Shown: positions 8,867 to 24,469 of the stretch, piece after piece
How positions within the stretch are numbered: position 1 is the stretch's first letter
How the letters are laid out: each line of letters begins with the position of its first letter
Source of the DNA: Nitrospinaceae bacterium
Lineage (GTDB): Bacteria; Nitrospinota; Nitrospinia; Nitrospinales; Nitrospinaceae
Direction of reading: 5' to 3'
Assembly (NCBI GenBank): GCA_965223665.1
Contig: OZ245011.1
Coordinates: 3,872,001 to 3,936,000 of the forward strand
DNA: 64,000 nucleotides
Notes under the pieces: generated by a model
The model's input: only the letters and a program-made list of their open reading frames with translations
The model's database searches: none
Told to the model about the DNA's origin: nothing
Position numbers and translations under genes: made by a program

Positions 8867-10180
8867 ATGACGGGCTCAATGGCAGATTTAAAGCAAACAC
8901 AAGAAGCAGAAATCATTGATTTATTTAAAAAAATTAAACCCTCCGATAGTTTGCAGGAACTACGAGAAGCAGCTATTCATCGATTTGAGGCTTTAAAGTT
9001 TCCACACAAAAAACATGAAATGTATACGTTTGCCAATGTGAAGGAGTTGGCTACCACCTCTTTCGTTTTGGCAAAAGAAGGGCCAATAGATTCAAAATTA
9101 ATTTTAGATAATGTGTACCCGTCTTGTAAAAATAGCTTTATTGTTTTTGTGAATGGATTTTTCCATGAGGGGCTGTCAAATATTTCTTCAATGGGAACTT
9201 CAATAAAGTTAATTGATTTAAATTCGGCGACTTTAGATAAAACTTTGCATTCCTATTTATTAGAAACAAATTCTAATGAAAATGATGTGTTTGCTACTTT
9301 AAATGGGGCTTTTTCTAATGGTGGATTACTTGTTGATGTTGCCGAAAACGCTACCTTTGAACAACCGTTACAAATTGTTTATGTTTCCCATTCCTCATCA
9401 CCCCAACCAATGACTTCACATCCACGTTTATTGATTCGACTTGGGAAATCAGCAGAGTTGAAGTTGATTGTTAAATTCTTAGGATGTGGAGAGAAGTATT
9501 TTGTGAACTGTGTTCAAGACTTTTTAGTTGAGGAAAATGCAGGTCTTACTTATTCGCAAATTCAACAGGATAATGCAAATGCTTGGCATTGCTCTAAAAC
9601 GCGTGCCAACATAAAAAGAAATGGTCGGTTTATTTCTTCTAATGCATCCTCCGGAAACCGTTTGACCCGGCACCATTATGAAGTCCATTTAAAAGATGAG
9701 GGAGCTGAAGCCCAACTGAATGGAGCTTCTGTTTTGATAAATGAAGAACAGGTTCATAACTTTGTTCGCATTCATCATGAAGCGCCTCATTGTACGAGCC
9801 AGCAATTATTTAGAAATGTTATTAATCATAAAGGGCGTTCAAGCTTTGATGGAACGGTGATCGTCAATAAAGGGGCGCAACTAACATATTCTGATCAATT
9901 AATAAATAACTTAATGCTTTCAGATGAAGCTCATGCAGATAATAAACCTAATTTAATGATTTTTGCAGATGATGTGAAATGTACTCACGGAGCAACCGTT
10001 GGGCAAATTGATGAGGATCAATTATTTTATTTGAAAACTCGAGGACTTTCCGAGGAGTTAGCGCAATCTTTGCTTACTAAAAGCTTTGTGGAAACGGTTA
10101 TACAAACAATACCTTTTCCCGAAGTTCGGGAGGACCTGGATGATATTTTATTGAAAAAATTGGAGGCCAATCATGGCTGA
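8867..10180 (+). CDS. sufD: Fe-S cluster assembly protein SufD
   Basis: P.L.IFADDVKCTHGATVGQ, FYL.TRG; position between sufC and sufS. Confidence 0.95.
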   Translation: MTGSMADLKQTQEAEIIDLFKKIKPSDSLQELREAAIHRFEALKFPHKKHEMYTFANVKELATTSFVLAKEGPIDSKLILDNVYPSCKNSFIVFVNGFFHEGLSNISSMGTSIKLIDLNSATLDKTLHSYLLETNSNENDVFATLNGAFSNGGLLVDVAENATFEQPLQIVYVSHSSSPQPMTSHPRLLIRLGKSAELKLIVKFLGCGEKYFVNCVQDFLVEENAGLTYSQIQQDNANAWHCSKTRANIKRNGRFISSNASSGNRLTRHHYEVHLKDEGAEAQLNGASVLINEEQVHNFVRIHHEAPHCTSQQLFRNVINHKGRSSFDGTVIVNKGAQLTYSDQLINNLMLSDEAHADNKPNLMIFADDVKCTHGATVGQIDEDQLFYLKTRGLSEELAQSLLTKSFVETVIQTIPFPEVREDLDDILLKKLEANHG

Positions 10181-11426
10181 TGCAGATACAACCACTCTGG
10201 TTTCGGGGTTTGAGGTAGATAAAATTCGTAGTGAATTCCCTGTGCTTTCACAAAAGGTTAATGATAAACCCCTAGTTTATTTAGATAATGCGGCTACTAC
10301 TCAAAAACCCTGGCGGGTAATCAACCGAGTCCATAAGTTTGATTCTGAAGAGTATGGAACTGTGCGTCGCGGAGCTTATAGGGTAAGTGAAAGATCGACC
10401 CAGTTATATGAAGATGCACGACAAAAATTGGCAGACTTTCTAGGGACACCGGATCGCAAAGAAATTATTTTTACTAGTGGTACGACACAGTCGATAAATT
10501 TAGTGGCTCATAGTTATGGTAAAAAATTTGTAGAGTCTGGGGATGAAGTTATTATTTCTACTATCGAACACCACGCAAATACGGTTCCCTGGCAAGTTTT
10601 ATGTGAAGAAAAGGGTGCGAAATTAAAAGCAATCCCAGTAAACGACCGTGGCGAATTGATAATGGAAGAGTATGATAAGTTATTGACGAATCGTACTAAG
10701 GTAGTTTCCGTTAACCATGTTTCAAATGCATTGGGAACTATTAACCCTATTAAAGAAATCACTGATAAGGCCCAAGCTGTAGGCGCCAAGGTATTAATTG
10801 ATGGAGCGCAAAGTGCTCCTCACATGAAAGTGAATGTGAAAGAATTGGGTTGTGATTTTTATACATTTTCCGGACATAAAATGTATGGTCCCAGTGGCAT
10901 CGGAGGCCTTTATGGAAAAATGGAAGTGTTGGAGTCTATGATTCCTTATGTAACTGGCGGTGATATGATTCGCCAAGTTACCCTGGAAAAAGCAACTTAT
11001 GCGGATCCTCCTGCGCGATTTGAAGCTGGAACGCCACCAATTTCACAAGTTATTGGCCTTGGAGAAGCAGTTGATTATTTACAGGAAATTGGATTAGATA
11101 AAATAGCTGAATATGAGAATAGTTTATTAGAATATGGAACCCGACTGTTTGAAGACATTGGGGGATTAAATATTATTGGAACGGCAGAAGAAAAGGCGAG
11201 CATAATTTCTTTCCATTCAGATGTAATACATCCTCATGATATGGTTACATTATTGGATCAAGATGGAATTGCTGTAAGAGGGGGGCATCATTGTGCTCAA
11301 CCGACCATGCAAAGATTTCAGGTTCCGGCCACCTCTCGGGCGTCGGTATCTTTTTATAATAAATTTGAAGAGCTTGATGCTTTAGCTGAGAGCGTTCAAA
11401 AAGCGATTAAACTTTTTTCAGGATAA
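10173..11426 (+). CDS. sufS: Cysteine desulfurase SufS
   Basis: YLDNAATTQKP, EHHAN, DGAQ, FSGHKMYGP, RGGHHCAQP. Confidence 0.96.
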   Translation: MADADTTTLVSGFEVDKIRSEFPVLSQKVNDKPLVYLDNAATTQKPWRVINRVHKFDSEEYGTVRRGAYRVSERSTQLYEDARQKLADFLGTPDRKEIIFTSGTTQSINLVAHSYGKKFVESGDEVIISTIEHHANTVPWQVLCEEKGAKLKAIPVNDRGELIMEEYDKLLTNRTKVVSVNHVSNALGTINPIKEITDKAQAVGAKVLIDGAQSAPHMKVNVKELGCDFYTFSGHKMYGPSGIGGLYGKMEVLESMIPYVTGGDMIRQVTLEKATYADPPARFEAGTPPISQVIGLGEAVDYLQEIGLDKIAEYENSLLEYGTRLFEDIGGLNIIGTAEEKASIISFHSDVIHPHDMVTLLDQDGIAVRGGHHCAQPTMQRFQVPATSRASVSFYNKFEELDALAESVQKAIKLFSG

Positions 11427-11500
11427 TAACGACTATTTTTTAGATATTGAAATAGTGGTAAAACAAGTTTTTTTGGAGTTGATTGAAAAGGAATTAAATT

Positions 11501-11953
11501 ATGTCCTATGATAATGAGCTTTACCAACAGGTGATTCTGGATCATAACAAAAAGCCGAAAAATTTCCGTGATATGGAAGATGCTACTCATTCCTGTCATG
11601 GATTCAATCCGCTTTGTGGAGATGATTATACTGTTTACCTTAAGGTCGATGGCCAAAACATTATTCAGGATATTAGTTTTATGGGATCAGGATGCGCTAT
11701 ATCTAAGGCAAGTTCTTCATTAATGACCAGTTTTTTAAAAGGAAAACCTATTGAGGATGCTAAAGTTGTCTATGAAGAGTTTCACAAGATGGTATTAGGT
11801 GAATTTGATCCTGAAAAAGAAGAGAATCATTTGGGAAAACTAAAATTGTTTATGGGGATACGAGAATTCCCCTCACGAATTAAGTGCGCTAGTTTGTCAT
11901 GGCATTCTATGGTTGGCGCTTTAAATAAAGACGATAAGGTTACAACGGAATAA
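11501..11953 (+). CDS. sufU: SUF-system sulfur-transfer/scaffold protein SufU
   Basis: LYQQVILDH..P.N, NPLCGD, GCAISKAS, RIKCA; follows sufS. Confidence 0.93.
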   Translation: MSYDNELYQQVILDHNKKPKNFRDMEDATHSCHGFNPLCGDDYTVYLKVDGQNIIQDISFMGSGCAISKASSSLMTSFLKGKPIEDAKVVYEEFHKMVLGEFDPEKEENHLGKLKLFMGIREFPSRIKCASLSWHSMVGALNKDDKVTTE

Positions 11954-11998
11954 TTTGAAGATTTAACTTCTAAATATCACCCCATCAAAAGGAGGTGG

Positions 11999-13069
11999 GT
12001 GATTAACACACCGAACGCACAATCCTTGTTAGATCAATCCACCCGGTCGGGTGATTTGTCCATCCCTTTAAAAAATAAATCACTCATTTGCACAGCTTGT
12101 GGGCATCGTTGTGAATTAAAGCCTGGAAAGCGAGGGGTTTGTAAAGTCCGGTTTAATGAAGAGGGTGTTTTAAGAGTTCCTTTTCAATATACAGCAGGAT
12201 TGCAGAATGATCCAATCGAGAAGAAACCCTTTTTTCATGTTTTACCAGGAAGTGATTCGCTAAGTTTTGGAATGTTGGGTTGTGACTTTAAATGTGGGTA
12301 TTGTCAAAACTGGTTTACCTCGCAAACTTTAAGCGATGAAGCTTCAACAGTAAGCTTCAACGCAATTACCTCCAATGAAATTTGTGACGTAGCGGAAAAG
12401 CATAAAGTAAAGACAATAATTTCTACTTATAATGAACCATTAATTACAAGTGAATGGGCTGTAGAGGTATTTAGAGAAGCGCGAACACGCAATTTTCTAA
12501 CCGGCTACGTTTCTAACGGTCACGGAACGCCCGAAGTGCTTGAATATATAAAACCTTGGTTAGATATAATTAAAATCGATTTAAAATGTTTTGATAAAAA
12601 TAAATATAGGAAATTGGGTGGGGGGTTGGATCAAGTATTGGAAACTATTCATTCGGTAAAAAGTATGGGATTTTGGTTGGAAATTGTTACCTTAGTGATT
12701 CCTGAATATAATGACTCAAACTCAGAATTAACCAAAATAGCGAAATTTATTGCTTCAATTTCTCCTGACATCCCTTGGCATGTAACCGGTTTTAATCCTC
12801 AATATAAAATGTTGGATAAAAGAAGTACCGAAATTAACCATTTAGTGAGGGCAAGGGATATCGGTATGAGTTTCGGGCTTCATTATGTTTATGCCGGAAA
12901 TAGGCCGGGCATGATTAAGAATGCAGAGGATACATTTTGTCCTAGTTGTAAGAGAACTTTAATTAAGCGTTTCGGATTTCGCGTTTTGAAAAACTATTTA
13001 ATCAATGGAAGATGTCCGCATTGTTTTTACTCCATTCCGGGGGTTTGGAGTAAAAATTTTCTAAAATAA
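11999..13069 (+). CDS. amrS: AmmeMemoRadiSam-type radical SAM enzyme
   Basis: C..C.H.C.L..G..G.C.VR, DPIEKKPFFH, GCDFKCGYCQNW, TYNEP, C-terminal T.CP.C...C..C. Confidence 0.88.
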   Translation: MINTPNAQSLLDQSTRSGDLSIPLKNKSLICTACGHRCELKPGKRGVCKVRFNEEGVLRVPFQYTAGLQNDPIEKKPFFHVLPGSDSLSFGMLGCDFKCGYCQNWFTSQTLSDEASTVSFNAITSNEICDVAEKHKVKTIISTYNEPLITSEWAVEVFREARTRNFLTGYVSNGHGTPEVLEYIKPWLDIIKIDLKCFDKNKYRKLGGGLDQVLETIHSVKSMGFWLEIVTLVIPEYNDSNSELTKIAKFIASISPDIPWHVTGFNPQYKMLDKRSTEINHLVRARDIGMSFGLHYVYAGNRPGMIKNAEDTFCPSCKRTLIKRFGFRVLKNYLINGRCPHCFYSIPGVWSKNFLK

Positions 13070-13396
13070 GAGAGAAATGAAAAGTGGTTCTAATTCTTAA
13101 CCTTCAAAAAATGTTTTGTAATAATAAGATTCCTGTTTCGCCTCTTCAAGATACTCGCTTTGTAAAACCAAATTTTATAATCAATTAGAAAATTTTGGTT
13201 TCCTCGGTTTGATTTTCTGTTTAGTTGTGTCGCTAAAAATGTTAAGGTTGTTTCCCCGCCTTTTGCAGGCCTTATAAGGCTATTCAAAATTTTGGGAACT
13301 TATTCGAGGTTTTCTGTTTTGAGGCTGTATAAAAAATGGATGGGCGGGTTTCTTCATTTTATTGATTGAGTCCGATAGAAAATTTCTGATAAAAAA

Positions 13397-15145
13397 ATGA
13401 TTTTGATTGAAAATAAAATAAGGAGAATGGGAAGTTTTAAAAGTTTGATTTTTGCTTGTGTTTTAATTTGGGTTTCATCAAATGCATTTGGACAAACTAA
13501 TGTTCCGCCAGCTGGGGAATCGGGCGTAATTGAAAAATCCCTGCGGTCTTCTCGTCCACAGTTTCAATCACCTGAGAAAGATATATCAAATATAATAAAA
13601 AATGATAGCCGAAAGGTTGAGGATCCTGGAGCCGGACCGCGTTTTTTTGTTGAAAAAATTCAGGTTCAAGGAAATACTCTGTTTTCCGATCAAGAATTAG
13701 CTCCTTTTGTAAACTTAGGTGGCACGGTAGAAGTTACTTTAGGAGTTCTGACCTTAATTGCCAATGAAATTACCGCCTTTTATGTTTCCAAAGGCTATAT
13801 TTTATCTTTTGCCTATATTCCTCCTCAGGAAATTGCTAATGGGGTGGTCCTTGTCCAAATTGTAGAATCAAGGATTGGCAAAATAGAGGTGCAAGGGAAT
13901 GAAAGATATACTGACGGCGAGATTTTGTCTTGGATGGAACAAGTACAAAAAGAGCGGGTTTTAAGTGAGCAAACTCTAGAACGAGCTTTACTTGATTTGA
14001 ATGATATATATGGGCTAAAAGTGCAATCCATTTTAAAACCCGGTGATAAAACTGGAACTTCCGATTTAGTTTTAAAAATTCAAGAATCAAAATCCTTTAA
14101 ATTTGAATTTGATGTAGATAACTTTGGTTCTCGATTTACAGGTCGACATCGATTTGGTTTAACTGCTTCTATTGACAATTTAGGATTGTTTGGAGACTCA
14201 TTCTCTATTCGGGGTTTAAAGTCCGAAAACAATCAAAATTATATTAATGCTAATTATTCTGTTCCAGTTTCCAATTATGGAACGCGGGCCAACTTTTCCT
14301 TTATATATTCTGACTTTGTATTAGGAGATTCGTTGAGCATTTTAAATGCTGAAGGGACATCAAATCTCATTTTGTTTGATATTACCCAAAAGATACATCG
14401 TTCTCGAAGATCCGAATTGTACATTTCAATCGGAGGTGAAATTAGAAACTTTAAAAATAGCCAAGCTAATAATCAAACCAGCAACGATAAGTTAAGAGAT
14501 ATATTTTTGGGATTAGGAGGAAATTGGTCTGATGGATTGTTTGGAAGGACTTTTTATGATATTCGACTTCAATGGGGTTTTACTGAAGGAAATATTGCGG
14601 ACCCACTTAACTCTCGATTTCATGGCAGAGGAGATGTTTTGATTTCCAGCTTTTCTTTTCAAAGATTTCAATCCATAAAAATTTTTAATTCATACTTTGT
14701 GATTAGGGGGAAGGGACAAATTGTTGCCAATCGGGTATTATCACCGGATCAGTTTGCTATTGGTGGTTTTGGAACAGTGCGTGGTTTTCCCCTGGCTGAA
14801 AATGCTGGTGACAATGGATTTACTTTTTCCTGGGAGTATGTATTGCCTTTTCCTGTAAAAATTCCTTTAACTTCTAAACCAGGTTTAAAAAGTTTGAATG
14901 AAATACTTTCGTTGTTTGGCTTTATTGATCACGGTCAGATTTTTGTCAGAAATAAACAGCCTGGAGAAATTAATAGTGAATTAACCGGCGCGGGCGGAGG
15001 CATTCGCGTCAATATTCCGAAAATAGATTGGCTTTTTCCTCAGATTAGTATAACCGCCTCCTATGGCTTTCCTGTTTTTACAAATAATGACCCCTCCGAT
15101 GGTTCTTCATCTACATTTTATTTTGCTGGTTTGATTTCCTTTTAA
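13397..15145 (+). CDS. ShlB/FhaC/HecB-family two-partner secretion transporter (TpsB)
   Basis: Signal peptide, POTRA-like GNT.F...Y...GY...AY.PPQEI..G.V...I.E..IG, DNFGS..TG, IGG.GTVRGF loop-6 motif, F.D.G, terminal Phe. Confidence 0.92.
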   Translation: MILIENKIRRMGSFKSLIFACVLIWVSSNAFGQTNVPPAGESGVIEKSLRSSRPQFQSPEKDISNIIKNDSRKVEDPGAGPRFFVEKIQVQGNTLFSDQELAPFVNLGGTVEVTLGVLTLIANEITAFYVSKGYILSFAYIPPQEIANGVVLVQIVESRIGKIEVQGNERYTDGEILSWMEQVQKERVLSEQTLERALLDLNDIYGLKVQSILKPGDKTGTSDLVLKIQESKSFKFEFDVDNFGSRFTGRHRFGLTASIDNLGLFGDSFSIRGLKSENNQNYINANYSVPVSNYGTRANFSFIYSDFVLGDSLSILNAEGTSNLILFDITQKIHRSRRSELYISIGGEIRNFKNSQANNQTSNDKLRDIFLGLGGNWSDGLFGRTFYDIRLQWGFTEGNIADPLNSRFHGRGDVLISSFSFQRFQSIKIFNSYFVIRGKGQIVANRVLSPDQFAIGGFGTVRGFPLAENAGDNGFTFSWEYVLPFPVKIPLTSKPGLKSLNEILSLFGFIDHGQIFVRNKQPGEINSELTGAGGGIRVNIPKIDWLFPQISITASYGFPVFTNNDPSDGSSSTFYFAGLISF

Positions 15146-15342
15146 TTTCCCTGAATTCAATATTTTTTACGCCTTGGATAAAATATCGGTGATTATGAGA
15201 ATTTTTCATAATTTGATCTTAAATCCCAAAAAACAAACCCTAATGGGGTATTTATTCTGATAAATGGTAAAATTGCTTTACTTTTGTTGGGTAAGTTCAT
15301 AATATCTACAAGGTAAATCTAATTTATGGATAAAGGCTATCC

Positions 15343-16167
15343 ATGCAAAATCTTTCCATTATAAGAAAATACCTAATCTTTTTAGCCTCAATCTCAGTTT
15401 ATATTTTTTTTGGGGGTTTGAGCCTAGCCCATTCTGAAGAAAAATCCATCGGCAAAATAATAGCTATTATTGGCCAAGCAGAGTTTATTAATGAAACAGC
15501 AGAAGTAACTTCTGAACTTAAAGGTGGTTCGATAAAAAAGGTTTCCTCTCCGATTTGGCAGAAAGTGATTCCCCATCAAAAGGTTTTTCCTCAAGATGTA
15601 TTTAGAACCTCAAAGAAAAGTCGGCTGAGAATTCTTTTTAACGATAGTAGTTTAATGGCATTGGGACCTAGTACAAAGATGAAAGTCTCTTCATATATTG
15701 TTAATTCAGAAAAAAAGTTTCGAAAAGGTGTAATGGATTTAGCGCATGGGCTTTCAATGTATATTGTTAATAAACAGCATAAAAGTGAGGGCTCCTCTTT
15801 CAAAATGGTATCACCCACTGCAAATATTACTGCAAGAGGAACTCAAGGGTATTTAAGTGTGTCTAAACAAAAGACTCTAGTGGCAAATTTAGCGGGAGCT
15901 GTTTCTGCAGAAAATTCTGATCCAGCTGTTACTGGGGAAGTTTTAGTCGGAATCAAGGAAAGCTCTATAGTTGAGAAAGGCAAACCTCCTACAGAACCAC
16001 AGCCTATTCGTAATGTAGAATTACAGTTTCTACAGCAAACGGTTATGGGTTGGCCTAATCCAAAAATAGATGAAGAATCAAATGGGGATTCAACTTTAGA
16101 GGAAGCTTTTGAGGAAGATTTTGAGCCGTTTGATGATATTGATAGCAATTCTTGTAAATCAGGATGA
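15343..16167 (+). CDS. Exported FecR-domain protein with acidic C-terminal tail
   Basis: Signal peptide; D..RT...SR..I.F.D.S...LGP.T and SPTA....RGT FecR-domain motifs. Confidence 0.85.
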   Translation: MQNLSIIRKYLIFLASISVYIFFGGLSLAHSEEKSIGKIIAIIGQAEFINETAEVTSELKGGSIKKVSSPIWQKVIPHQKVFPQDVFRTSKKSRLRILFNDSSLMALGPSTKMKVSSYIVNSEKKFRKGVMDLAHGLSMYIVNKQHKSEGSSFKMVSPTANITARGTQGYLSVSKQKTLVANLAGAVSAENSDPAVTGEVLVGIKESSIVEKGKPPTEPQPIRNVELQFLQQTVMGWPNPKIDEESNGDSTLEEAFEEDFEPFDDIDSNSCKSG

Positions 16168-16171
16168 ACAT

Positions 16172-18439
16172 ATGCGTAAGGGGAGAAAAGTGAAACTTAT
16201 TCCATTCAAAATATCTAACTTTATTCTTTTGGGATGGTTATACTGCGTTTTTTCAATTTTCCCTTCTAAAATTTATGCGCTTCCTTCGGGGGGAAATATT
16301 ATCCAGGGAGAAGGTTCTATTCGACTACCCTCCGCCCAAGAATTAAATGTTCAACAAAATTCGCAAAAGTTAATTGCCGAATGGAACTCTTTTGGAATTG
16401 GGGCTACAGAATCAGTACGGTTTATTCAGCCCAATGCAAATTCAGTTGCCTTAAATAGAGTGATAGGTAGTGACCCGAGCCAAATTTTAGGAAAGTTATC
16501 AGCAAATGGACAAGTATTTTTGGTCAATCCTTCAGGAGTCTATTTTGGGCCAAACTCTATTGTGGATGCCCACGGATTTATTGGATCTACTTTAGATCTT
16601 AGCAATCAGGATTTTTTCGATGGTAATTATACCTTTATCAAAAATCCCTCAAAACCTCTGGCTTCTATTATTAACCAAGGGGAAATTAAAGCAGGGGCAT
16701 ATGCCGGCCTTGTAGCTCCTGCAATTTCAAATGGGGGAAAAATTATTGTAGCTGATCTGGGAACAGTGGCTTTAGGGGCGGGAGAAGCAGCTGTTTTAGA
16801 TTTCAATGGAGATGGCTTAATAAACTTTACCATCACCCAACCAGTATTAGGAGAAGTTCCAGATAATAATGGAATTTTATTACCAAATAGGATCTTAAAC
16901 TCCGGTCAAATTCAGGCAAATGGAGGACAAGTTCTTTTAATGGCTAAGGAAGCTGGAAATATAGTACGTGATGTTGTTAATCATTCAGGAATAATTGAGG
17001 TCAACTCAGTTGTTAAAAAAAATGGACGGATTGTTCTATCAGGTGGAGAAAAGGGTATTGTTAATGTTTCTGGAACCCTCAACGCTATAGGAAATAATAT
17101 TGATGAAAATGGTGGCCATATTACCATTGAAGGTGAAGAAATAGGATTGTTTCAGTCAGCAATATTGAATGTTGCTGGAATGGCTAGTGGTGGAATGATT
17201 AATGTGGGTAAAGGTTCAAATGGAACTATCAATGCTCCCACAGCTAAAAATGTTTATATAGGTGAAAATGTTCAAATGTTAGCCAATTCATTATCATTTG
17301 GGGAAGGTGGAATAGTCGGCCTTTATGCCGCGGATACGTTACGCCACTATGGGCAAATTAATGCTGCGGGAGGTCCTTTGAATGGGAATGGTGGAACCGT
17401 AATTAATTCTGGAAAGCGTTCTATCGAGATCAAAAATGCTCCCGATATTAGTACAAATAATGGTTCGGGCGGGGATTGGTTAGTAATTGATGCAGATGTA
17501 ATTGAAATTTTACCAGGAAAAGGAGTATTTGATTCTGGTGGCGACCCCTTTGGGAATATTGAAGATGGATTGAAATTTGGGGCTGATTTAATTCTAGATG
17601 CTTTTGATGAAGGTTCAACTGTATTTATTGCAACAGGTTTTTTGGGAAAGAAAGAAAATGGTAGTCTCTTTTTGAATGCTCCAATTGATTTCACAGGCAA
17701 AGGGCCAAATTCTTTAATTTTAGGTGCCAGGAAGCATATTTTCTTAAACGAAAGTATATTTACACCTGGTAAAAACTTTAATGACCGATTAAATGTAACT
17801 TTATTAGCCAATACTGATGAGGGAATAATAGGTTCCTTCTATTTGAAGGAAGGTAAAGTTGTTGATTCGAATAATAGAGATATCTGGATAAGAGGGGCAG
17901 ATTTTCATTCGAGGGGATTATTAAAAAGTGGAACGGCACGGGTAGTTATTCGAACTCGCGGAATTAATAGAATGTCTATAGGAAATGGAACTAATAATCC
18001 TGGATTTACCATAGATAATGACGAACTGAGCAGAATTATGGCTGATAGGGTAATCTTTGATAGTTTGGGTAATATTTATATTGATGGGGTCCAACAAAAT
18101 TCAACCAATTCTATTAATCAATTATTATTCTTTTCTGGCGAAAAAATTGTAACTCAAGGTGAAAAATCTTCTTTTACCCCTGGGGTGGAATTAAATGCTC
18201 GTGATAAGATTGAAGTTAATGCTGATTTAGAAGTCCAGGGGGACTTGGTTGCCAATGTGCAAGTAGGAGGAGTTGAAGTAAGTGAAGACGTTTCTGTGGA
18301 GGCTGTCAATTCACAATTTAACGAAAATGGTTCCGGGAATTCTTTGAGCTTTGAAGAAAGAGAATTGGTGGAGCAAGGTAACTTAAGTACTTTTATAAAA
18401 GAATTTCTGGAAAATGGAAAAACTTTTAACGATTGTTAA
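16172..18439 (+). CDS. Filamentous haemagglutinin N-terminal (TPS) domain exoprotein, TpsA-like, ~755 aa
   Basis: ALPSGG, WNSF.IG, F.QP...S.ALNRV, S.I.G.L.ANGQVFLVNPSG TPS domain, Gly/Asn-rich beta-helix repeats; ATG 16172 just after the FecR stop preferred over TTG 16109. Confidence 0.9.
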   Translation: MRKGRKVKLIPFKISNFILLGWLYCVFSIFPSKIYALPSGGNIIQGEGSIRLPSAQELNVQQNSQKLIAEWNSFGIGATESVRFIQPNANSVALNRVIGSDPSQILGKLSANGQVFLVNPSGVYFGPNSIVDAHGFIGSTLDLSNQDFFDGNYTFIKNPSKPLASIINQGEIKAGAYAGLVAPAISNGGKIIVADLGTVALGAGEAAVLDFNGDGLINFTITQPVLGEVPDNNGILLPNRILNSGQIQANGGQVLLMAKEAGNIVRDVVNHSGIIEVNSVVKKNGRIVLSGGEKGIVNVSGTLNAIGNNIDENGGHITIEGEEIGLFQSAILNVAGMASGGMINVGKGSNGTINAPTAKNVYIGENVQMLANSLSFGEGGIVGLYAADTLRHYGQINAAGGPLNGNGGTVINSGKRSIEIKNAPDISTNNGSGGDWLVIDADVIEILPGKGVFDSGGDPFGNIEDGLKFGADLILDAFDEGSTVFIATGFLGKKENGSLFLNAPIDFTGKGPNSLILGARKHIFLNESIFTPGKNFNDRLNVTLLANTDEGIIGSFYLKEGKVVDSNNRDIWIRGADFHSRGLLKSGTARVVIRTRGINRMSIGNGTNNPGFTIDNDELSRIMADRVIFDSLGNIYIDGVQQNSTNSINQLLFFSGEKIVTQGEKSSFTPGVELNARDKIEVNADLEVQGDLVANVQVGGVEVSEDVSVEAVNSQFNENGSGNSLSFEERELVEQGNLSTFIKEFLENGKTFNDC

Positions 18440-18506
18440 AATATCTTTTATAAAATTTTAATGGTAAATGATTGAATCCTTCCTATTTTTAAAGTATTAA
18501 TTCTAA

Positions 18507-20735
18507 ATGAAAAAGTGGTGGTTGAATCCCTTAACAATTTCTGTATTCATCACTTTAATTTCCTTATCCATTTATAGATTAGACTTTTTCTTTTTTCGCT
18601 TACTTGAGTTAAAAGCTTATGACTTTCTTATGTCCACACGCGGAGTCCAACCCGTTTCGGATAAAGTAGTCATAATTTCGATTGATGAAAAAAGTTTAAA
18701 GCAAGAAGGACGATGGCCATGGCCAAGAACGCGATTAGCAAAGCTGGTTGATCGTTTGGTAGAAAACAATGTTTCTGTAATTGGGATCGATCTTCTATTT
18801 CCTGAAAAGGATGATCATGTTTCCTATAATGAATTTCTATCCAATTTAAAAAGTCAAAAGTTTAAACGGAAGGATGCGGATGAAATAATTGATTGGGTTG
18901 TTAATTTAGAACATGCGGATCAACAGTTTGAAACATCATTAGAACAATCAAATCGTGCCGTGTTAAGTTATTTCGTATATTCTTCTAAAGAACAGGCCGG
19001 GAACCACGTATTGCCCCTAAGTACAAAAGATTTTAACTTGTTGGATTTTTCCCAGTACCCTTTGGTGAAAAAAGAAAAAAATAGTGATCCTTCAGCTTAT
19101 CTAAGATCCATTTATGCTGTTGGAATGTCTTTACCAATTCTGATGAAAGCAGCGAATAGCGCAGGTTTTGTTTCTTTCATCCCGGAGCATGATGGGGTAA
19201 TCCGAAGAATTCCACTAATTCAGATCTATAAAGATTATCTGTTTCCTCCATTTAGCCTTCAAGTAATAAAAGAAGCTACCAGTTTGAATTTATTTGCTCA
19301 TCTTCTCCCGCAAAGGGTAGGAGAAATTTCATTAGGGGGAAGGTTAATTCCCGTATCCGAGGAAGGAGATTTTTTAATAAATTTCTTTGGTCCCAATAAA
19401 ACATTTTCTCATTATTCAGCTACTGACGTTTTACAAAAAAAAATCAATCCCAATAATTTAAAAAATAAAATTGTATTAATTGGTGCGACAGCCACCGCAA
19501 TTCATGATTTGCATACCACTCCTTTTGGCCCCTTAATGCCAGGAGTCGAGGTCCATGCTAATGTTATTGAGAATATTTTATTTGATAAATTTATTCGAAG
19601 ACCTGCTTGGGTTCCTTTGTTTGATGCCGCGATGATTTTAGCACCAGGGTTATTAATTGGCGCTTTTGCCTTATCCCTAAAAGCATTTGGAACAGCCGTT
19701 CTCTTAATTTTTGGTTTAATTGGTTTTTGCACCCTGGATTTTTATCTGTTTTGGATGGAAGGACTATGGGTTAATACTGTATACCCTATTTTTTCACAGT
19801 TATTTGTTTATTTTGGGATCACTTTGTATCGCTTCGCTTTTGAAGAAAAAGAAAAGCGATTTATAAAGGAAGCTTTTAGTCAATACCTTGCGCCTACGGT
19901 AGTTGATCGTCTTGTAAAAGACCCTTCCTTATTAAAGCTAGGTGGAGAGCGGCGGATCATCTCTGCATTTTTTTCGGATATTGCTGGGTTTTCGAGTATT
20001 TCTGAAAGGATGTCCCCTGAAGATTTGGTGGATTTATTAAATTTATATTTAACTGAAATGACACAAGTATTAATGAAGCAGGAAGGTACAGTTGATAAGT
20101 TTGAGGGAGACGCCATTATTGCCTTTTTTGGAGCTCCGATTTCTTATAAGGATCATGCCAAACGGGCCTGTTGGGCCGCATTGGAAATGCAAGGTCGTTT
20201 GAATGAACTTCGAAAACGTTGGAAGGAGGAAGGTAAACCTGAGCTTTTTATGCGAATTGGAATCAATACTGGCACTGTTGTTGTAGGGAATTTAGGATCT
20301 AAAAGTCGCATGGATTATACAATGATGGGGGATTCAGTTAATCTTGCTTCTCGACTTGAAGGAGTAAACAAACAATACCATACAGAAATTATTATTAGTC
20401 AATTTACATATGAAGAAGCCAAAAACCATATACAGGTTCGGCAGTTGGACTTAATTCGTGTGATCGGTAAACAGCAGCCCATAAAAATTTATGAGTTATT
20501 AGGGAAAAAAGATGAAATGAAAGAAAGTATAAGAAAAATTCTTCCATTTTATAATGAAGGATTGCGTCATTATCAAAACCAAAATTGGGAGGAAGGAATT
20601 GAATGTTTTGAGAAAGCGCTTAATATCGATGAAGACGATGGTCCTGCATTAACCTACTTCGAAAGATGTTTAACATTTCAAATGCATCCACCACCAAAAA
20701 ATTGGGATGGTGTGTTTACTATGCGAAATAAATAG
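18507..20735 (+). CDS. CHASE2-domain class III adenylate cyclase with C-terminal TPR-like module
   Basis: IDEKSL...GRWPWPR, DGVIRR, KIVLIG, TPFG.MPGVEVHA (CHASE2); 3 TM; FSDIAGF, DKFEGD, RIGINTG, DYT.MGDSVNLASRLE (ATP-specifying Lys/Asp). Confidence 0.93.
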   Translation: MKKWWLNPLTISVFITLISLSIYRLDFFFFRLLELKAYDFLMSTRGVQPVSDKVVIISIDEKSLKQEGRWPWPRTRLAKLVDRLVENNVSVIGIDLLFPEKDDHVSYNEFLSNLKSQKFKRKDADEIIDWVVNLEHADQQFETSLEQSNRAVLSYFVYSSKEQAGNHVLPLSTKDFNLLDFSQYPLVKKEKNSDPSAYLRSIYAVGMSLPILMKAANSAGFVSFIPEHDGVIRRIPLIQIYKDYLFPPFSLQVIKEATSLNLFAHLLPQRVGEISLGGRLIPVSEEGDFLINFFGPNKTFSHYSATDVLQKKINPNNLKNKIVLIGATATAIHDLHTTPFGPLMPGVEVHANVIENILFDKFIRRPAWVPLFDAAMILAPGLLIGAFALSLKAFGTAVLLIFGLIGFCTLDFYLFWMEGLWVNTVYPIFSQLFVYFGITLYRFAFEEKEKRFIKEAFSQYLAPTVVDRLVKDPSLLKLGGERRIISAFFSDIAGFSSISERMSPEDLVDLLNLYLTEMTQVLMKQEGTVDKFEGDAIIAFFGAPISYKDHAKRACWAALEMQGRLNELRKRWKEEGKPELFMRIGINTGTVVVGNLGSKSRMDYTMMGDSVNLASRLEGVNKQYHTEIIISQFTYEEAKNHIQVRQLDLIRVIGKQQPIKIYELLGKKDEMKESIRKILPFYNEGLRHYQNQNWEEGIECFEKALNIDEDDGPALTYFERCLTFQMHPPPKNWDGVFTMRNK

Positions 20736-20746
20736 GGAGAGATTAT

Positions 20747-21118
20747 TTGTTTTTTGGTGAATATTTGGTGCAGCAAAAAATTATAAGCGAGAAGGATTTA
20801 GCTTTTGTATTAGATACTTTAGGGCAAAATAATAAGGTTCCTTTAGGACAATTAGCCGTTCAAAACGGTTGGCTAAGCCGAAAGGAGTTATTTAAAATTC
20901 TATCTGGGCAAAGAAAAGATAAAGATGTTAAGAAGAATTTTGGGACGCTTGCAATTGAATTAGGTTTTATGAATCAAACCCAAATTGATAACTTATTAAA
21001 AATGCAAGCTCAATCTCATCAGATGCTTGGGGAATATTTGCTTTCCAAAGAACTAATTAATAGAAAGAAATTAATTCAGTCTTTGCGTGCCTATAGATTA
21101 TTTTTGAATAACTTATGA
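20747..21118 (+). CDS. Small protein with four MshEN-like helical repeats
   Basis: FGEYLVQQKII, LGQLAVQNGWL, FGTLAIELGFM, LGEYLLSKELI repeats; GGGAG SD before the TTG start. Confidence 0.7.
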   Translation: MFFGEYLVQQKIISEKDLAFVLDTLGQNNKVPLGQLAVQNGWLSRKELFKILSGQRKDKDVKKNFGTLAIELGFMNQTQIDNLLKMQAQSHQMLGEYLLSKELINRKKLIQSLRAYRLFLNNL

Positions 21119-21220
21119 TCTTCTTTTGTGGAAGTTTATTAGACATGTATAATAAGTCTCTAATTATTTTATAGCTCGGTTATTTGGCAATAACTTCATT
21201 CAATTGGAAATATATAGATT

Positions 21221-21697
21221 ATGAAAAATAAAAAACAAGTTGGGAAAGCTCTAGGGAAGGTGCCTAGTGGATTATTTATTGTAACTACTGCGTATAAAGA
21301 TCAAGAAGATGCCGTATTGGCAAGTTGGGTTAATCAAACCTCATTTAATCCTCCAGCTGTAACCATTGCTTTAGCCATTACGCGTTCAGCACGATTGCAA
21401 ATTGAAGCATCCAATGCTTTTATCATAAACATTTTGGGTAAAGAATCTAGTGCCCTTATGAAACATTTTTTCCAACCCCCCAAACCTGGAACTTCAATTT
21501 TTAAGGGGCTGAAAGTAAAGAAGGGTTTTCAGGAAATAAAGGTTTTGAATGAATGTATTGGGTATTTGGAATGTAAAGTAATCAATCAAACTATTGCAGG
21601 AGACCATGTGGTATATGTGGGAGAAATTGTTGGAGGAAATATCTTAAAAGGGGGGGATCCTTATGTGCACATTAGGGATAATGGATTTAACTATTAA
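21221..21697 (+). CDS. Flavin reductase-like protein
   Basis: ALG..PSGL.IVT, ASWV.Q.SF.PP, LEC, AGDH....GE. Confidence 0.88.
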   Translation: MKNKKQVGKALGKVPSGLFIVTTAYKDQEDAVLASWVNQTSFNPPAVTIALAITRSARLQIEASNAFIINILGKESSALMKHFFQPPKPGTSIFKGLKVKKGFQEIKVLNECIGYLECKVINQTIAGDHVVYVGEIVGGNILKGGDPYVHIRDNGFNY

Positions 21698-21705
21698 ATA
21701 ATGAA

Positions 21706-21972
21706 TTAATTCAAGCCAAGCATTTTGGGGAGGTCTGTACGGGTAAAAACCCAATATAGCAGCAAGCTAATAAAGGCTACTCCCCCAATAGTGCTCGCTA
21801 CCATTATTGCCATTCGTTTGGGATTTGCTTGTGCAAAATCCTTCATATCCCCCGCTAAGCTTCCAATGACGTTTTCATCCGGGCGTTTACGGAAGGTTTT
21901 ATCTATAGCATCTTTACCATAGATGATTCCAAAAATTATGAGAACGATTAATATTTCAATTGCGCCTATCAT
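21706..21972 (-). CDS. Hypothetical membrane protein (2 TM)
   Basis: Hydrophobic N- and C-terminal helices; overlaps the stop of the upstream gene. Confidence 0.65.
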   Translation of the reverse strand: MIGAIEILIVLIIFGIIYGKDAIDKTFRKRPDENVIGSLAGDMKDFAQANPKRMAIMVASTIGGVAFISLLLYWVFTRTDLPKMLGLN

Positions 21973-24469
21973 ATCTTAAAACATTTGCCATAGAAATTTT
22001 AGATGGAACTATATAAACTCCGGGTTCGTTGGAGGTCATTTTTTTTGGAGTATCCATTTTTGATCCACTGAGGGCGCAACGAAATCCATAATCATCCATT
22101 TGTGTTTCAGGATAACTGTTGTTTCGAAAGGAGGCGTATATGAGAGAACGCAAATCTCTCCATGACCCTCCCTTGAGTACCTTAAATTCACCCCCAATTT
22201 GTCCCTTTGGATTTATATATTGAGTTTCATCCTTATAATACTCTCGATCATACCAATCGTCTACCCATTCTTTTACATTCCCTAGTAAATGGAAAACTCC
22301 GTAAAGACTTTGACCCTTGGGCATTGTATCCACAGGTACCATGACCCGATGTTTTAAATCATCAGTCCAAGTTTGAAGATATCTAGCAAGCTGAGGGCTG
22401 ATAGGGTCCGATCCCCAAGGAAATAAGCGACCATCAGTACTTCGGGCGGCTTTTTCCCACTCTGCTTCGGTAGGTAGTCTTTTACCTTTCCAACGACAAT
22501 AAGCATCTGCTCCATACCAACTCACATTATTTATGGGATATTTATCAAAACCCTTTCTAGGTTTAAAAACCGAATTATAAATTAATATCCCATATTGGCT
22601 GTCTTTATAAAATTTTTTATGATCTTTAGTTTGATTTAAAAAATCAGAATAATCTTTTGCTGTCACTTCATATTTATCAATGTAATAGGAGTCCAAGAAA
22701 ACCTTATGTTCGGGAAATTCGTCATCCCCATGATGCTGGGCTCCCATAATAAAAAACCCTTTGGGAACAAGAACCATGTCTTTAAAAGTTAATTTTTTTT
22801 CCTCAGACTTAAGCAATGATTTAGCCCTATCAATAAATGGTCCATTAGAATCCTTATTTATATATTTTTCTAAATAAGGTTGAGCTTTGTGAAAGTTATT
22901 ACTGCGTATTAAAATCCAACCTAAATAAAAAAGAAGGTCTTTTCGTTGTGGATATTTCCCCATTGCCTCTTGTAGGTCAAATACTATAGAGTCAATGGTT
23001 TTGGAATCTTTTGAATCCAAAGACTGTTGATACCATTTTTCTGCAGTGGAATAATCTTTTTTTATCACATTGTAAAAACCAAGGTTCATATAAGCTAATG
23101 ATAAGAAGCCTTTTGATTTTGATTTTTCAAGTCCTTTTTTTGTCCAATCTATTGCGGTATCTATACTGCCCATTTGATAATGTGTCCAACCCAACTGGAT
23201 ATACATTTGTAGCATGTGGGGAAGTTTTTCAATCAAAAACTCATATTGAATAATGGCATTATCATAATCTTTCAATCGATAATGGGCCTCCGCAATTCTT
23301 TCATTTACTTCAATTCTCTGAGGAAACATTTTTTGAACCTTTTGAAATTGATTTAAGGCCAGGTCATATTGTTTCATTTCTAAATAAAGGGTACCTACAT
23401 TTAAATGAGGAACAAAGTCCTGTGGTTGTAACTCTGTCATTACTGTTGTATGTAGAAGCGCGCTAATATATTTTTTCTGATCCATAAAAAGTCGAGCAAG
23501 CATCTCGTGAACTCTAGGAAAACCGGGATTGATTTGAGCTACTTGTAAAAATGATTGAATTGCCTTTTCTTTTTTGCCGGAATCTGAATAAGCTACTCCC
23601 AGGTTGTATAAAGTAGAAAAATTATTTGGGTCTACTTTTAAAGCTTTTTCATATTGTTCAATAGACTTAACAAAATTTTTTGTGTCTGAATACATGTTCC
23701 CAAGGTTATTAAGGGTGTCTATTGAAAGGGGATTGATTTTAGCGGCAAGTTCCATGTAGAAAAATGCTTTTTCCATTTTTCTGATTTTGTAATATGTGAT
23801 TCCTACATTTGAAAAATAAGCACCCAAAGTTTGTTTTTTATTAAGGTTTTTTAAATAATATAGAGAGTTGGGAGAAGGAGAAAATCGGTTCTTGTAAAAA
23901 ATATCCTGATAGATTGTTCCTTTAGCCGTCGTTTCAATATTTATTTTTTTACCACCGGATTCGTAGCGGACGAAAAAATGATTGGGCAAAGGGACACCAT
24001 ATATAGGCAAGTTTAATTTTTCTGCGATGATTAAATATAGTAAAGATAAATTCATACAATATCCGCGTTTGTTTTGTAAGAGCCCATGAAGAAAAAGCTC
24101 TTCTGGGTTTAGGGGAAACCCTTGCGGATCTGTAAAAGGTGTGTAATCAAACCCCCATTTAAGATGGATTACTTTTTTCAGGGCATCAATAATCTCTTCC
24201 GGAGAATTTTTTTCAGTTATAGCAACTTGAGCATCTTTAACAATCTCATCAATTAATTTTTTTAAACTTTCTAAATCTATATTGGGTTGCCAATCTTGTG
24301 ATATTAAAAATAAAATCTCTGTTAGCTCGATTTTATCGTTTGAAAGTTGCAACAGGCTTTCAATGTTTTCTTTGGAAGAGTTGTTGGGGAAATTTTGTCC
24401 TGAGGAATAGGAAAACAAGGACAACCATAAGACAAACAATAACAATAAAGTTTTATTATGAAATTTCAA
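21956..24469 (-). CDS. Exported multidomain protein: transglutaminase-like (SirB1-type) + TPR array + FGE/SUMF1-like domain
   Basis: Signal peptide; KRGYC..LS.LY..IA..L.LP.YGV..P.HFFVR; about 8-9 TPRs; IDKYEVT, VSW..A.AYC.W.GKRLPTEAEWEKAAR, GNV.EW..DW, KGGSW, GFRC. Confidence 0.87.
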   Translation of the reverse strand: MKFHNKTLLLLFVLWLSLFSYSSGQNFPNNSSKENIESLLQLSNDKIELTEILFLISQDWQPNIDLESLKKLIDEIVKDAQVAITEKNSPEEIIDALKKVIHLKWGFDYTPFTDPQGFPLNPEELFLHGLLQNKRGYCMNLSLLYLIIAEKLNLPIYGVPLPNHFFVRYESGGKKINIETTAKGTIYQDIFYKNRFSPSPNSLYYLKNLNKKQTLGAYFSNVGITYYKIRKMEKAFFYMELAAKINPLSIDTLNNLGNMYSDTKNFVKSIEQYEKALKVDPNNFSTLYNLGVAYSDSGKKEKAIQSFLQVAQINPGFPRVHEMLARLFMDQKKYISALLHTTVMTELQPQDFVPHLNVGTLYLEMKQYDLALNQFQKVQKMFPQRIEVNERIAEAHYRLKDYDNAIIQYEFLIEKLPHMLQMYIQLGWTHYQMGSIDTAIDWTKKGLEKSKSKGFLSLAYMNLGFYNVIKKDYSTAEKWYQQSLDSKDSKTIDSIVFDLQEAMGKYPQRKDLLFYLGWILIRSNNFHKAQPYLEKYINKDSNGPFIDRAKSLLKSEEKKLTFKDMVLVPKGFFIMGAQHHGDDEFPEHKVFLDSYYIDKYEVTAKDYSDFLNQTKDHKKFYKDSQYGILIYNSVFKPRKGFDKYPINNVSWYGADAYCRWKGKRLPTEAEWEKAARSTDGRLFPWGSDPISPQLARYLQTWTDDLKHRVMVPVDTMPKGQSLYGVFHLLGNVKEWVDDWYDREYYKDETQYINPKGQIGGEFKVLKGGSWRDLRSLIYASFRNNSYPETQMDDYGFRCALSGSKMDTPKKMTSNEPGVYIVPSKISMANVLRYDRRN

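Follow-up and report, generated by a model that had tools for sequence, protein, structure and literature searches.

A FecR-fold protein between two-partner secretion genes and a CHASE2 cyclase in Nitrospinaceae: a possible filament-tethered input to cyclic AMP signalling

Why should a bacterium of the Nitrospinaceae encode a FecR-domain protein between the two partners of a secretion system, and follow them with a putative adenylate cyclase that carries a CHASE2 domain? The genes that raise this question lie at 13397-21118 of a 64,000-nucleotide stretch of contig OZ245011.1 (assembly GCA_965223665.1), which we refer to as the window. Open reading frame (ORF) reading and Pfam annotation of the window gave five ORFs in this interval, all co-oriented on the forward (+) strand: a TpsB transporter, a FecR-domain protein, a TpsA exoprotein, a CHASE2/class III cyclase/TPR protein, and a small MshEN-like protein. 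We found that the order of the first four recurs among relatives, that the FecR protein and TpsA each carry a lone, conserved cysteine at the C-terminus, and that FecR-domain and CHASE2 genes are neighbors in several phyla. The reading we favor, with a probability of roughly 45%, is that a TpsA filament threaded through TpsB is disulfide-bonded to the FecR protein and that this assembly is read by the CHASE2 cyclase.

The genes are closely spaced. TpsB (13397..15145, +) has 582 amino acids, the FecR-domain protein (15343..16167, +) has 274, TpsA (16172..18439, +) has 755, the cyclase (18507..20735, +) has 742, and the MshEN-like protein (20747..21118, +) has 123. TpsB and FecR are separated by 197 nucleotides (nt). 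The longest TpsA ORF begins at a TTG codon at 16109 and overlaps the FecR gene; with the ATG at 16172 as the start, TpsA is 755 amino acids long and the gaps among the last four genes are 4, 67, and 11 nt. Given that start, the five co-oriented genes and the spacing described in an earlier note on this DNA hold, and the ORF order bears out its placement of the FecR gene between transporter and passenger.

The first and third genes encode a type Vb (two-partner secretion, TPS) pair. TpsB has a signal peptide, two POTRA domains (amino acids 83-206), and a ShlB-type 16-strand barrel (amino acids 220-537), with Pfam matches to POTRA_2 (E-value 1.3e-18; E-values are given in this form throughout), POTRA (1.5e-08), and ShlB (5.6e-26). 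Its translation contains GTVRGFP, in which we take VRGF to be the L6 VRG[Y/F] motif of Omp85/ShlB barrels. TpsA has the matching features of a signal peptide, an N-terminal TPS domain (amino acids ~57-303, Pfam 2.5e-33), and a beta-helix. In its structural model (mean predicted local distance difference test score, pLDDT, 80.4), beta strand extends from residue 42 to 717 and is followed by a disordered linker, a short helix (738-751), and the terminal Cys755. Foldseek placed the model nearest to EtpA (8vbb, 2.2e-25) and the EtpA secretion domain (8cpk, 1.7e-23), followed by HMW1 (2odl, 5.7e-21) and HxuA (4rt6/4i84). Pfam returned no match in the C-terminal 429 amino acids, which, together with a beta-helix modeled to residue 717, supports the earlier suggestion that this TpsA lacks an effector domain at its C-terminus.

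To what extent do these genes travel together? We recruited 30 loci with a profile of FecR homologs, all labeled Nitrospinota bar three with odd bin labels, and mapped the window proteins onto all of their ORFs by phmmer. Of 28 loci that allow an assessment, 24 have TpsB upstream of FecR; in two more, a giant TpsA comes to an end and TpsB follows downstream of it, giving the order FecR-TpsA-TpsB. TpsA stands beside FecR or TpsB in 28 of the 29 loci in which this could be assessed. Downstream DNA is visible in 17 loci, and in 15 of them a CHASE2 cyclase follows (L020 and L023 are without it); over the 21 loci that can be judged in any way, the cyclase is again present in 15. The closest public locus belongs to a Nitrospinaceae metagenome-assembled genome and encodes proteins 80-88% identical to those of the window. 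In the relatives G001 and G004, the genome's only CHASE2 gene adjoins FecR-TpsA, and in a tree of the cyclases every deep Nitrospinota branch carries TPS-FecR neighbors.

Part of this conservation reflects vertical synteny, since the same Suf/radical SAM and flavin-reductase flanks are common to most loci. Such flanks occur in 18 loci, and another eight, mostly short contigs, show neither the flanks nor a cyclase. The row TpsB-FecR-TpsA-cyclase was also found outside the Suf/radical SAM/flavin-reductase context, in L021, L033, L035, and L037. The neighborhood search that the earlier note had proposed thus returned the order TpsB-FecR-TpsA-CHASE2 cyclase repeatedly within Nitrospinaceae, in at least two genomic contexts.

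A pattern of cysteines points to a link between the FecR protein and TpsA. The FecR protein has a single cysteine, Cys271, four residues from its end (codon 16153..16155, +, by translation reading). This position is an invariant column in the alignment of FecR homologs; a cysteine lies one to six residues from the end in all 31 homologs with a complete C-terminus, and in 30 of these 31 it is the only cysteine outside the signal region, with one extra pair in L026. TpsA ends in a motif made up of F741, F745, and Cys755, the last residue (18383..18436, +). When 16 FecR-linked TpsAs are aligned, no column outside the N-terminal start is invariant other than these three, and Cys755 is the sole cysteine of the window TpsA outside its signal peptide. 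Counting the window protein, 17 ORFs in related loci, and the ends of two giant TpsAs, the ending F...F......C is present in 19 of 20 readable C-termini; in L039, the sole exception, the sequence gives way to a run of N. Further cysteines in FecR-linked TpsAs are mostly close CxxxC-type pairs. In one of these TpsAs, L028:9133-12800, a frameshift interrupts the gene, which is either misassembled or has recently become a pseudogene; read on in the next frame, it retains the ending ...F..DF......GC.

Neither of the other two envelope components has a comparable residue. Mature TpsB lacks cysteine, with one exception (L022), and the periplasmic part of the CHASE2 protein contains none by translation reading. 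Against the genome background the feature is rare, as 18 of 2591 ORFs of at least 200 amino acids end in cysteine and seven have a lone cysteine in the last seven residues, the FecR gene being one of these seven. None of the four TpsAs of this genome that lack FecR linkage has a lone terminal cysteine, and three of the four have a cysteine pair in the last ~25 residues. The known anchor of HMW1 and HxuA is an intramolecular Cys-Cys loop near the TpsA C-terminus. The window TpsA belongs to the same structural subfamily as HMW1/HMW1B and HxuA/HxuB, but where their anchor has two cysteines in one chain, here TpsA has Cys755 alone and the proposed partner, Cys271, is on the separate FecR protein. 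Because the FecR-linked TpsA supplies one terminal cysteine and the neighboring FecR protein the other, the simplest reading is that they would form an intermolecular disulfide, making the folded FecR domain a periplasmic stopper of the filament. The paired lone cysteines would be a concrete means of coupling TpsA to FecR. Both the pairing and its likeness to an HMW1-type anchor are new here.

A predicted complex of FecR residues 32-274 with TpsA residues 636-755, of the kind the earlier note had suggested modeling, lends weak support to a contact. The score was 0.47 (0.39, 0.47, and 0.52 in separate runs), compared with 0.00 for the best of three controls. For calibration, 58 of 80 solved complexes reached the mark, as did 2 of 110 mismatched pairs; scores of 0.60 or lower at the mark account for seven of the 80 solved complexes and for both mismatches that passed. 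The runs, which used custom alignments, agreed in at least 32% of contacts, with a partner pLDDT of at least 56.

Several TpsA genes elsewhere differ from the one in the window. Beta-helix length among relatives ranges from about 0 to more than 7500 amino acids, with both ends invariant. Two mini-TpsA genes, L015:2374-2802 (142 amino acids) and L020:651-1019 (122 amino acids), are reduced to a signal peptide, the first strand of the TPS domain, and the F...F......C tail; their loci could be decaying systems or assembly artefacts. A locus scan started from the single TpsA protein returned one relative only. Outside the window, this genome has a second short TpsA, of 726 amino acids with a C-terminal cysteine pair and a TpsB of its own, at G000:C1:2576000-2594000 (locus L008). 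Its neighbors encode a 1037-amino-acid WD40 protein, a DUF4384 protein, and a caspase-FGE-sulfatase protein, with no FecR and no CHASE2.

What kind of FecR protein is this? The Pfam match (PF04773, 4.1e-10) spans amino acids 85-187. The structural model (mean pLDDT 76.2) has a signal-like helix (2-25), a beta domain (37-211), a further helix (224-235), and a disordered acidic tail (238-274) that contains an F..F motif. Foldseek matched it best to the C-terminal signaling domain of PupR (6ovk, 8.9e-07) and also to a Bacteroides anti-sigma factor (4m0h, 1.9e-06, and 4m0n). Neither a transmembrane segment nor a cytoplasmic anti-sigma domain is present in the model, the signal-like helix alone preceding the beta domain, so the protein is predicted to have the FecR fold without being a FecR-type anti-sigma factor. 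Searching the whole library with a FecR profile yielded 8754 FecR-like representatives, 43 of them at 1e-30 or better, and these 43 mostly aligned through to the C-terminal end of the profile. A search for longer FecR forms gave one match, a protein of 2176 amino acids with FecR and CARDB domains; it gave no TpsA-FecR fusion, a blank that is weak evidence.

The fourth gene encodes a receptor-like cyclase, with Pfam matches to CHASE2 (4.7e-66), Guanylate_cyc (4.1e-25), and TPR_2 (5.5e-06). A first transmembrane segment is followed by a periplasmic CHASE2 domain (amino acids 17-371), three hydrophobic segments as judged by eye, a class III cyclase domain (amino acids 485-663), and a TPR (amino acids 681-711). 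The closest solved cyclase is Pseudomonas aeruginosa CyaB (3r5g, 1.3e-41), and alignment with it shows conserved FFSDI, DKFEGD (DKFxGD), DYT, and VNLASRLE. By this alignment, the residues expected of class III cyclases (metal-binding Asp, substrate-binding Lys with Thr or Asp, transition-state Asn and Arg) appear to be in place. The putative specificity positions hold the Lys of DKFEGD and the Thr of DYT, which we take to be the substrate-specifying pair of class IIIb; on these positions the enzyme is probably a Lys/Thr class IIIb adenylate cyclase. An ATP-specifying Lys/Asp pair had been proposed, and its Lys is indeed present, but the partner residue is Thr, not Asp. A homolog search with the CHASE2 domain gave at least 120 matches; the 120 listed are all close relatives (identity at least 44%) and so offer no sample across phyla.

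Is the proximity of FecR and CHASE2 peculiar to this family? We scanned for loci with eight more distant FecR proteins, an alignment of 32 being too diverse for the scan. A CHASE2 gene lies within the flanks of 29 of the 72 distant FecR loci, many on short contigs, and the 72 span Nitrospirota, Omnitrophota, Planctomycetia, Syntrophales, and others. At L109:7307-14947, the row reads MlaE-MlaF-MlaD, FecR, a porin-like barrel (BBP2), a CHASE2-SpoIIE (PP2C) phosphatase, and GAF-HD. The same type of row, adjoining a lipid-transport system, occurs in L100, L104, L108, L111, and L115 (Omnitrophota/Planctomycetia). The output domain varies while the set of FecR, barrel, and CHASE2 is constant. The statement in the earlier note that CHASE2 enzymes are often encoded near FecR-domain proteins and outer-membrane barrels is matched by FecR-CHASE2 adjacency in several phyla. 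Published examples are similar: according to passages of PMC5192318 and PMC9239204, a LysM-FecR protein is encoded beside a CHASE2 histidine kinase in a Burkholderia operon, and FecR also neighbors CHASE2 in cyclase clusters of Campylobacterota. These clusters share with the window a periplasmic FecR-domain protein encoded beside a CHASE2 receptor but have no two-partner secretion pair, and their outer-membrane partner is absent, porin-like, or fused.

The nearest precedent for function comes from Sinorhizobium meliloti. In the excerpts of PMC7529298 and PMC13001267, the outer-membrane protein NsrA is genetically required for signal-induced cyclic AMP (cAMP) synthesis by a CHASE2 cyclase. On S. 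meliloti pSymB, we found a 1219-amino-acid ORF with FecR and TPR abutting a CHASE2 cyclase, which from size and position we infer to be NsrA-CyaK. Like that system (also CyaD1/CyaD2), the window encodes a FecR-bearing envelope protein beside a CHASE2 class III cyclase. NsrA, however, combines FecR, TPR, and barrel in a single chain, and its system has no TpsA, whereas here FecR is a separate, soluble protein of 274 amino acids, the barrel is TpsB, and a secreted beta-helix is added.

A fused form does exist elsewhere in this genome. Locus L009 (G000:C1:911200-920904) encodes a second 742-amino-acid CHASE2-cyclase-TPR protein, then LuxR-type response regulator, PAS-GAF, HATPase, and REC genes, then an NsrA-like protein (G000:C1:917326-920904) of 1192 amino acids with FecR, TPR, and a TonB-receptor-like barrel, ~4 kilobases (kb) from the paralogous cyclase. 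Orthologs of the NsrA-like protein directly adjoin a CHASE2 gene in genomes G002 and G003, and in the cyclase tree the L009 paralog nests among the TPS-linked cyclases (support 94/93). A relay from a FecR-domain outer-membrane protein to a CHASE2 cyclase is thus already in print, and the present system is less new than the earlier reading implied. Our literature searches turned up no paper that connects CHASE2 to two-partner secretion, and a passage of an eLife paper (PMC8195603) mentions CHASE2 solely as a receptor domain fused into caspase proteins. We also considered a Sphingobium plasmid (AP027319.1; L043:7715-22082) that encodes, in order, a CHAT protease, a CHASE2 cyclase, a 238-amino-acid protein, TpsB, and a 2207-amino-acid protein. 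The 238-amino-acid protein was rejected as FecR-like (profile comparison probability 0.2%), and the 2207-amino-acid protein has no TPS match in Pfam. The row is thus an alphaproteobacterial case of CHASE2 near TpsB that lacks a recognizable FecR domain.

The gene content, folds, conserved order, and cysteine pattern observed here can be assembled into the mechanism that we favor. TpsB would export the TpsA beta-helix to the cell surface, and the C-terminal tail of TpsA would be held in the periplasm, as for HMW1, HxuA, and FhaB. The terminal cysteine of TpsA and the C-terminal cysteine of FecR would then form a disulfide. Because the folded FecR domain would not fit through the pore, the filament would stay threaded through TpsB, and FecR-TpsA would become one molecule spanning the outer membrane. 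In this Nitrospinaceae lineage, the neighboring cyclase would in turn sense the FecR domain through its periplasmic CHASE2 domain, as the neighborhoods and the analogy with NsrA-CyaK suggest. Pulling, clipping, or loss of the surface filament could then alter cAMP synthesis, with signaling presumably running in this direction. In its more specific form, a type Vb pair serving as a receptor, in which TpsA is an antenna of variable length and the position or integrity of FecR gates the cyclase, the idea is doubtful.

Two secretion systems offer partial parallels. In passages of a review by Guerin et al. (PMC5422565, citing Buscher 2006), the C-terminus of HMW1 and HxuA stays periplasmic and a cysteine-dependent plug retains the protein on its transporter. 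For Bordetella FhaB/FhaC, passages of PMC4542190 describe a C-terminal prodomain that is periplasmic during secretion, and its authors propose that the chain carries information across the outer membrane in both directions. FhaB resembles the arrangement proposed here in its periplasmic C-terminus and external beta-helix, but its large prodomain is later degraded and it has neither a FecR protein nor a cyclase.

The spacer between TpsB and FecR contains a conserved small hairpin, ACCCTAATGGGGT, at 15237..15249 (+), followed by a T-rich run and returned as a terminator-like match. The hairpin bases are invariant across seven aligned spacers, and a -10-like box near 15298-15303, 3' of the hairpin, is conserved in seven aligned loci. 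Hairpin and box are a possible attenuator plus internal promoter, and FecR-TpsA-cyclase may have a promoter of their own. Scans for consensus promoters and terminators found fewer sites than in shuffled sequence and were uninformative on operon structure. Four sequencing runs of one study contain the stretch, and none of the four is recorded as RNA. An Rfam scan of 12900-21400 had no family near threshold, so we see no riboswitch in that interval.

Several observations weigh against the tethered-filament reading. Since the conserved hairpin and promoter-like box part TpsB from FecR, the five genes may not form a single transcript. Exceptions occur among the related loci: the cyclase is missing from L020 and TpsA from L031, L015 retains no more than pieces of TpsB along with its 142-amino-acid mini-TpsA, and L023 has the order TpsA-TpsB-FecR with no cyclase within 9.5 kb. 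Among the 72 distant FecR loci, TpsB was found in one, using a TpsB model built from Nitrospinota only; this locus (L098, Omnitrophota) encodes a beta-helix ORF, FecR, TpsB, and CHASE2. The FecR and TpsA tails are disordered or of low confidence in the single-chain models, and complex predictions in the score band of the FecR-TpsA pair are more often wrong than right unless the pairing is likely beforehand. The giant-TpsA loci (L025, L027, L034, L039) add to these points. We checked their whole genomes since the loci stopped before the TpsA end, and none of the 14 FecR-subfamily genes in the four genomes shares a contig with a CHASE2 match. The FecR-TpsA pair therefore does its work where no cyclase adjoins it, and FecR may serve as an anchor and nothing more. 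It also follows that TpsB/FecR/TpsA make up the conserved core, to which the cyclase has been added in the lineage of Nitrospinaceae with short TpsAs that includes the window. Coupling of this core to cAMP is plausible but not universal.

Of the alternatives, the strongest is that FecR acts as a periplasmic stopper or retention partner of a TpsA adhesin, in effect an intermolecular HMW1-type anchor, and that the cyclase works independently. The trios without CHASE2 on their contigs are what this explanation predicts, and the cysteine pattern ties FecR to TpsA and not to the cyclase. It leaves unaccounted for that 15 of 17 visible loci, in several genomic contexts, have the cyclase downstream, that G001 and G004 possess no CHASE2 gene besides this one, that FecR adjoins CHASE2 across phyla, and that NsrA-CyaK provides a genetic precedent. 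We consider it unlikely, though a serious competitor. The same neighborhood data apply if CHASE2 and FecR monitor unsecreted or stalled TpsA in the periplasm and cAMP adjusts filament expression to the secretion load or state of the envelope, and the FecR gene does sit between transporter and cargo, with a gap of 4 nt to TpsA. A lone terminal cysteine and an invariant tail nonetheless favor a stable, specific joint over transient surveillance, and we saw no regulator responsive to cAMP among the annotated neighbors, making such feedback distinctly improbable in our view and the second of the rivals in rank.

Last in order, and very improbable, is that the five genes are inherited together without sharing a function, or that they carry out classical Fec-type cell-surface signaling. 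Most loci do have the same Suf/radical SAM and flavin-reductase flanks, as inherited synteny would predict, but the four-gene core also occurs in other contexts (L021, L033, L035, and L037). As for the Fec type, the periplasmic beta domain matches that of PupR and FecR (PF04773; 6ovk, 4m0h), and the logic of an outer-membrane event acting on a FecR domain is common to FecA-FecR-FecI and PupB-PupR. Those systems, however, have the transmembrane segment, anti-sigma domain, extracytoplasmic function (ECF) sigma factor, and TonB-dependent transducer that are missing here. As the earlier note stated for the vicinity, there is no ECF sigma factor and no TonB-dependent receptor among the ORFs annotated between 8867 and 26689. 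Its central proposal, that the TPS pair is a surface antenna relayed through FecR to CHASE2 and cAMP, survives in part. Gene order, FecR-CHASE2 adjacency, the NsrA precedent, and the cysteines speak for it, and the giant-TpsA trios without CHASE2 on the contig speak against it.

The fifth gene appears to be peripheral to this system. Pfam by itself gave only sub-threshold matches for the 123-amino-acid protein, but a profile of ten orthologs matched PilF of Thermus thermophilus (6f8l, 8.9e-11), the MshE N-domain (5htl, 2.8e-05), and PilB (5zfr, 3.3e-05). The protein consists of tandem MshEN/T2SSE_N-like repeats, and the label "MshEN-like" given to it previously was apt. Its four repeats read FFG, PLG, NFG, and MLG, and the Arg of RLGxx(L/V/I)(L/V/I)xxG..., which we take to be the cyclic di-GMP-binding MshEN motif, is not conserved at that place. 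The gene was found in 12 loci, all of which show other Suf-context genes except L020, which starts inside FecR, and it is absent from L021, L033, L035, and L037. It is thus a conserved neighbor in Suf-context loci only, outside the mobile four-gene core.

Upstream of TpsB lies a Suf-type Fe-S assembly row of SufBD, SufS, and NifU-like genes followed by a radical SAM protein (8867-13069, +), which is syntenic with the five-gene stretch in most relatives and missing from the four loci that keep the four-gene core. We considered whether the radical SAM or NifU genes might modify the cysteines and rejected this, as they are Suf cluster members and are absent from the four alternative-context loci. 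Downstream, the neighbor by Pfam annotation is a flavin reductase gene. On the opposite strand are an 837-amino-acid protein with a transglutaminase-like core, many TPRs, and an FGE-sulfatase domain (21956-24469, -) and, adjoining it, a BatA/VWA protein (24545-26689, -); we saw no tie between these two genes and the five-gene system.

To our knowledge, the input of CHASE2 has not been established since the domain was defined, NsrA-CyaK of S. meliloti being the one genetic lead. This locus suggests that a periplasmic FecR-fold domain is the common partner of CHASE2 and that it could be presented by differing outer-membrane devices: a barrel fused to it, a porin-like barrel, or, as here, an exported filament retained in its pore. 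If the tethered-filament reading is true, the first defined CHASE2 input would be a protein tether and not a small molecule, and the locus would encode a split, covalently re-joined equivalent of NsrA-type receptors. The principle of the HMW1-type anchor would then extend to a joint between two proteins, and secretion hardware would be serving as a sensor in these marine relatives of nitrite oxidizers.

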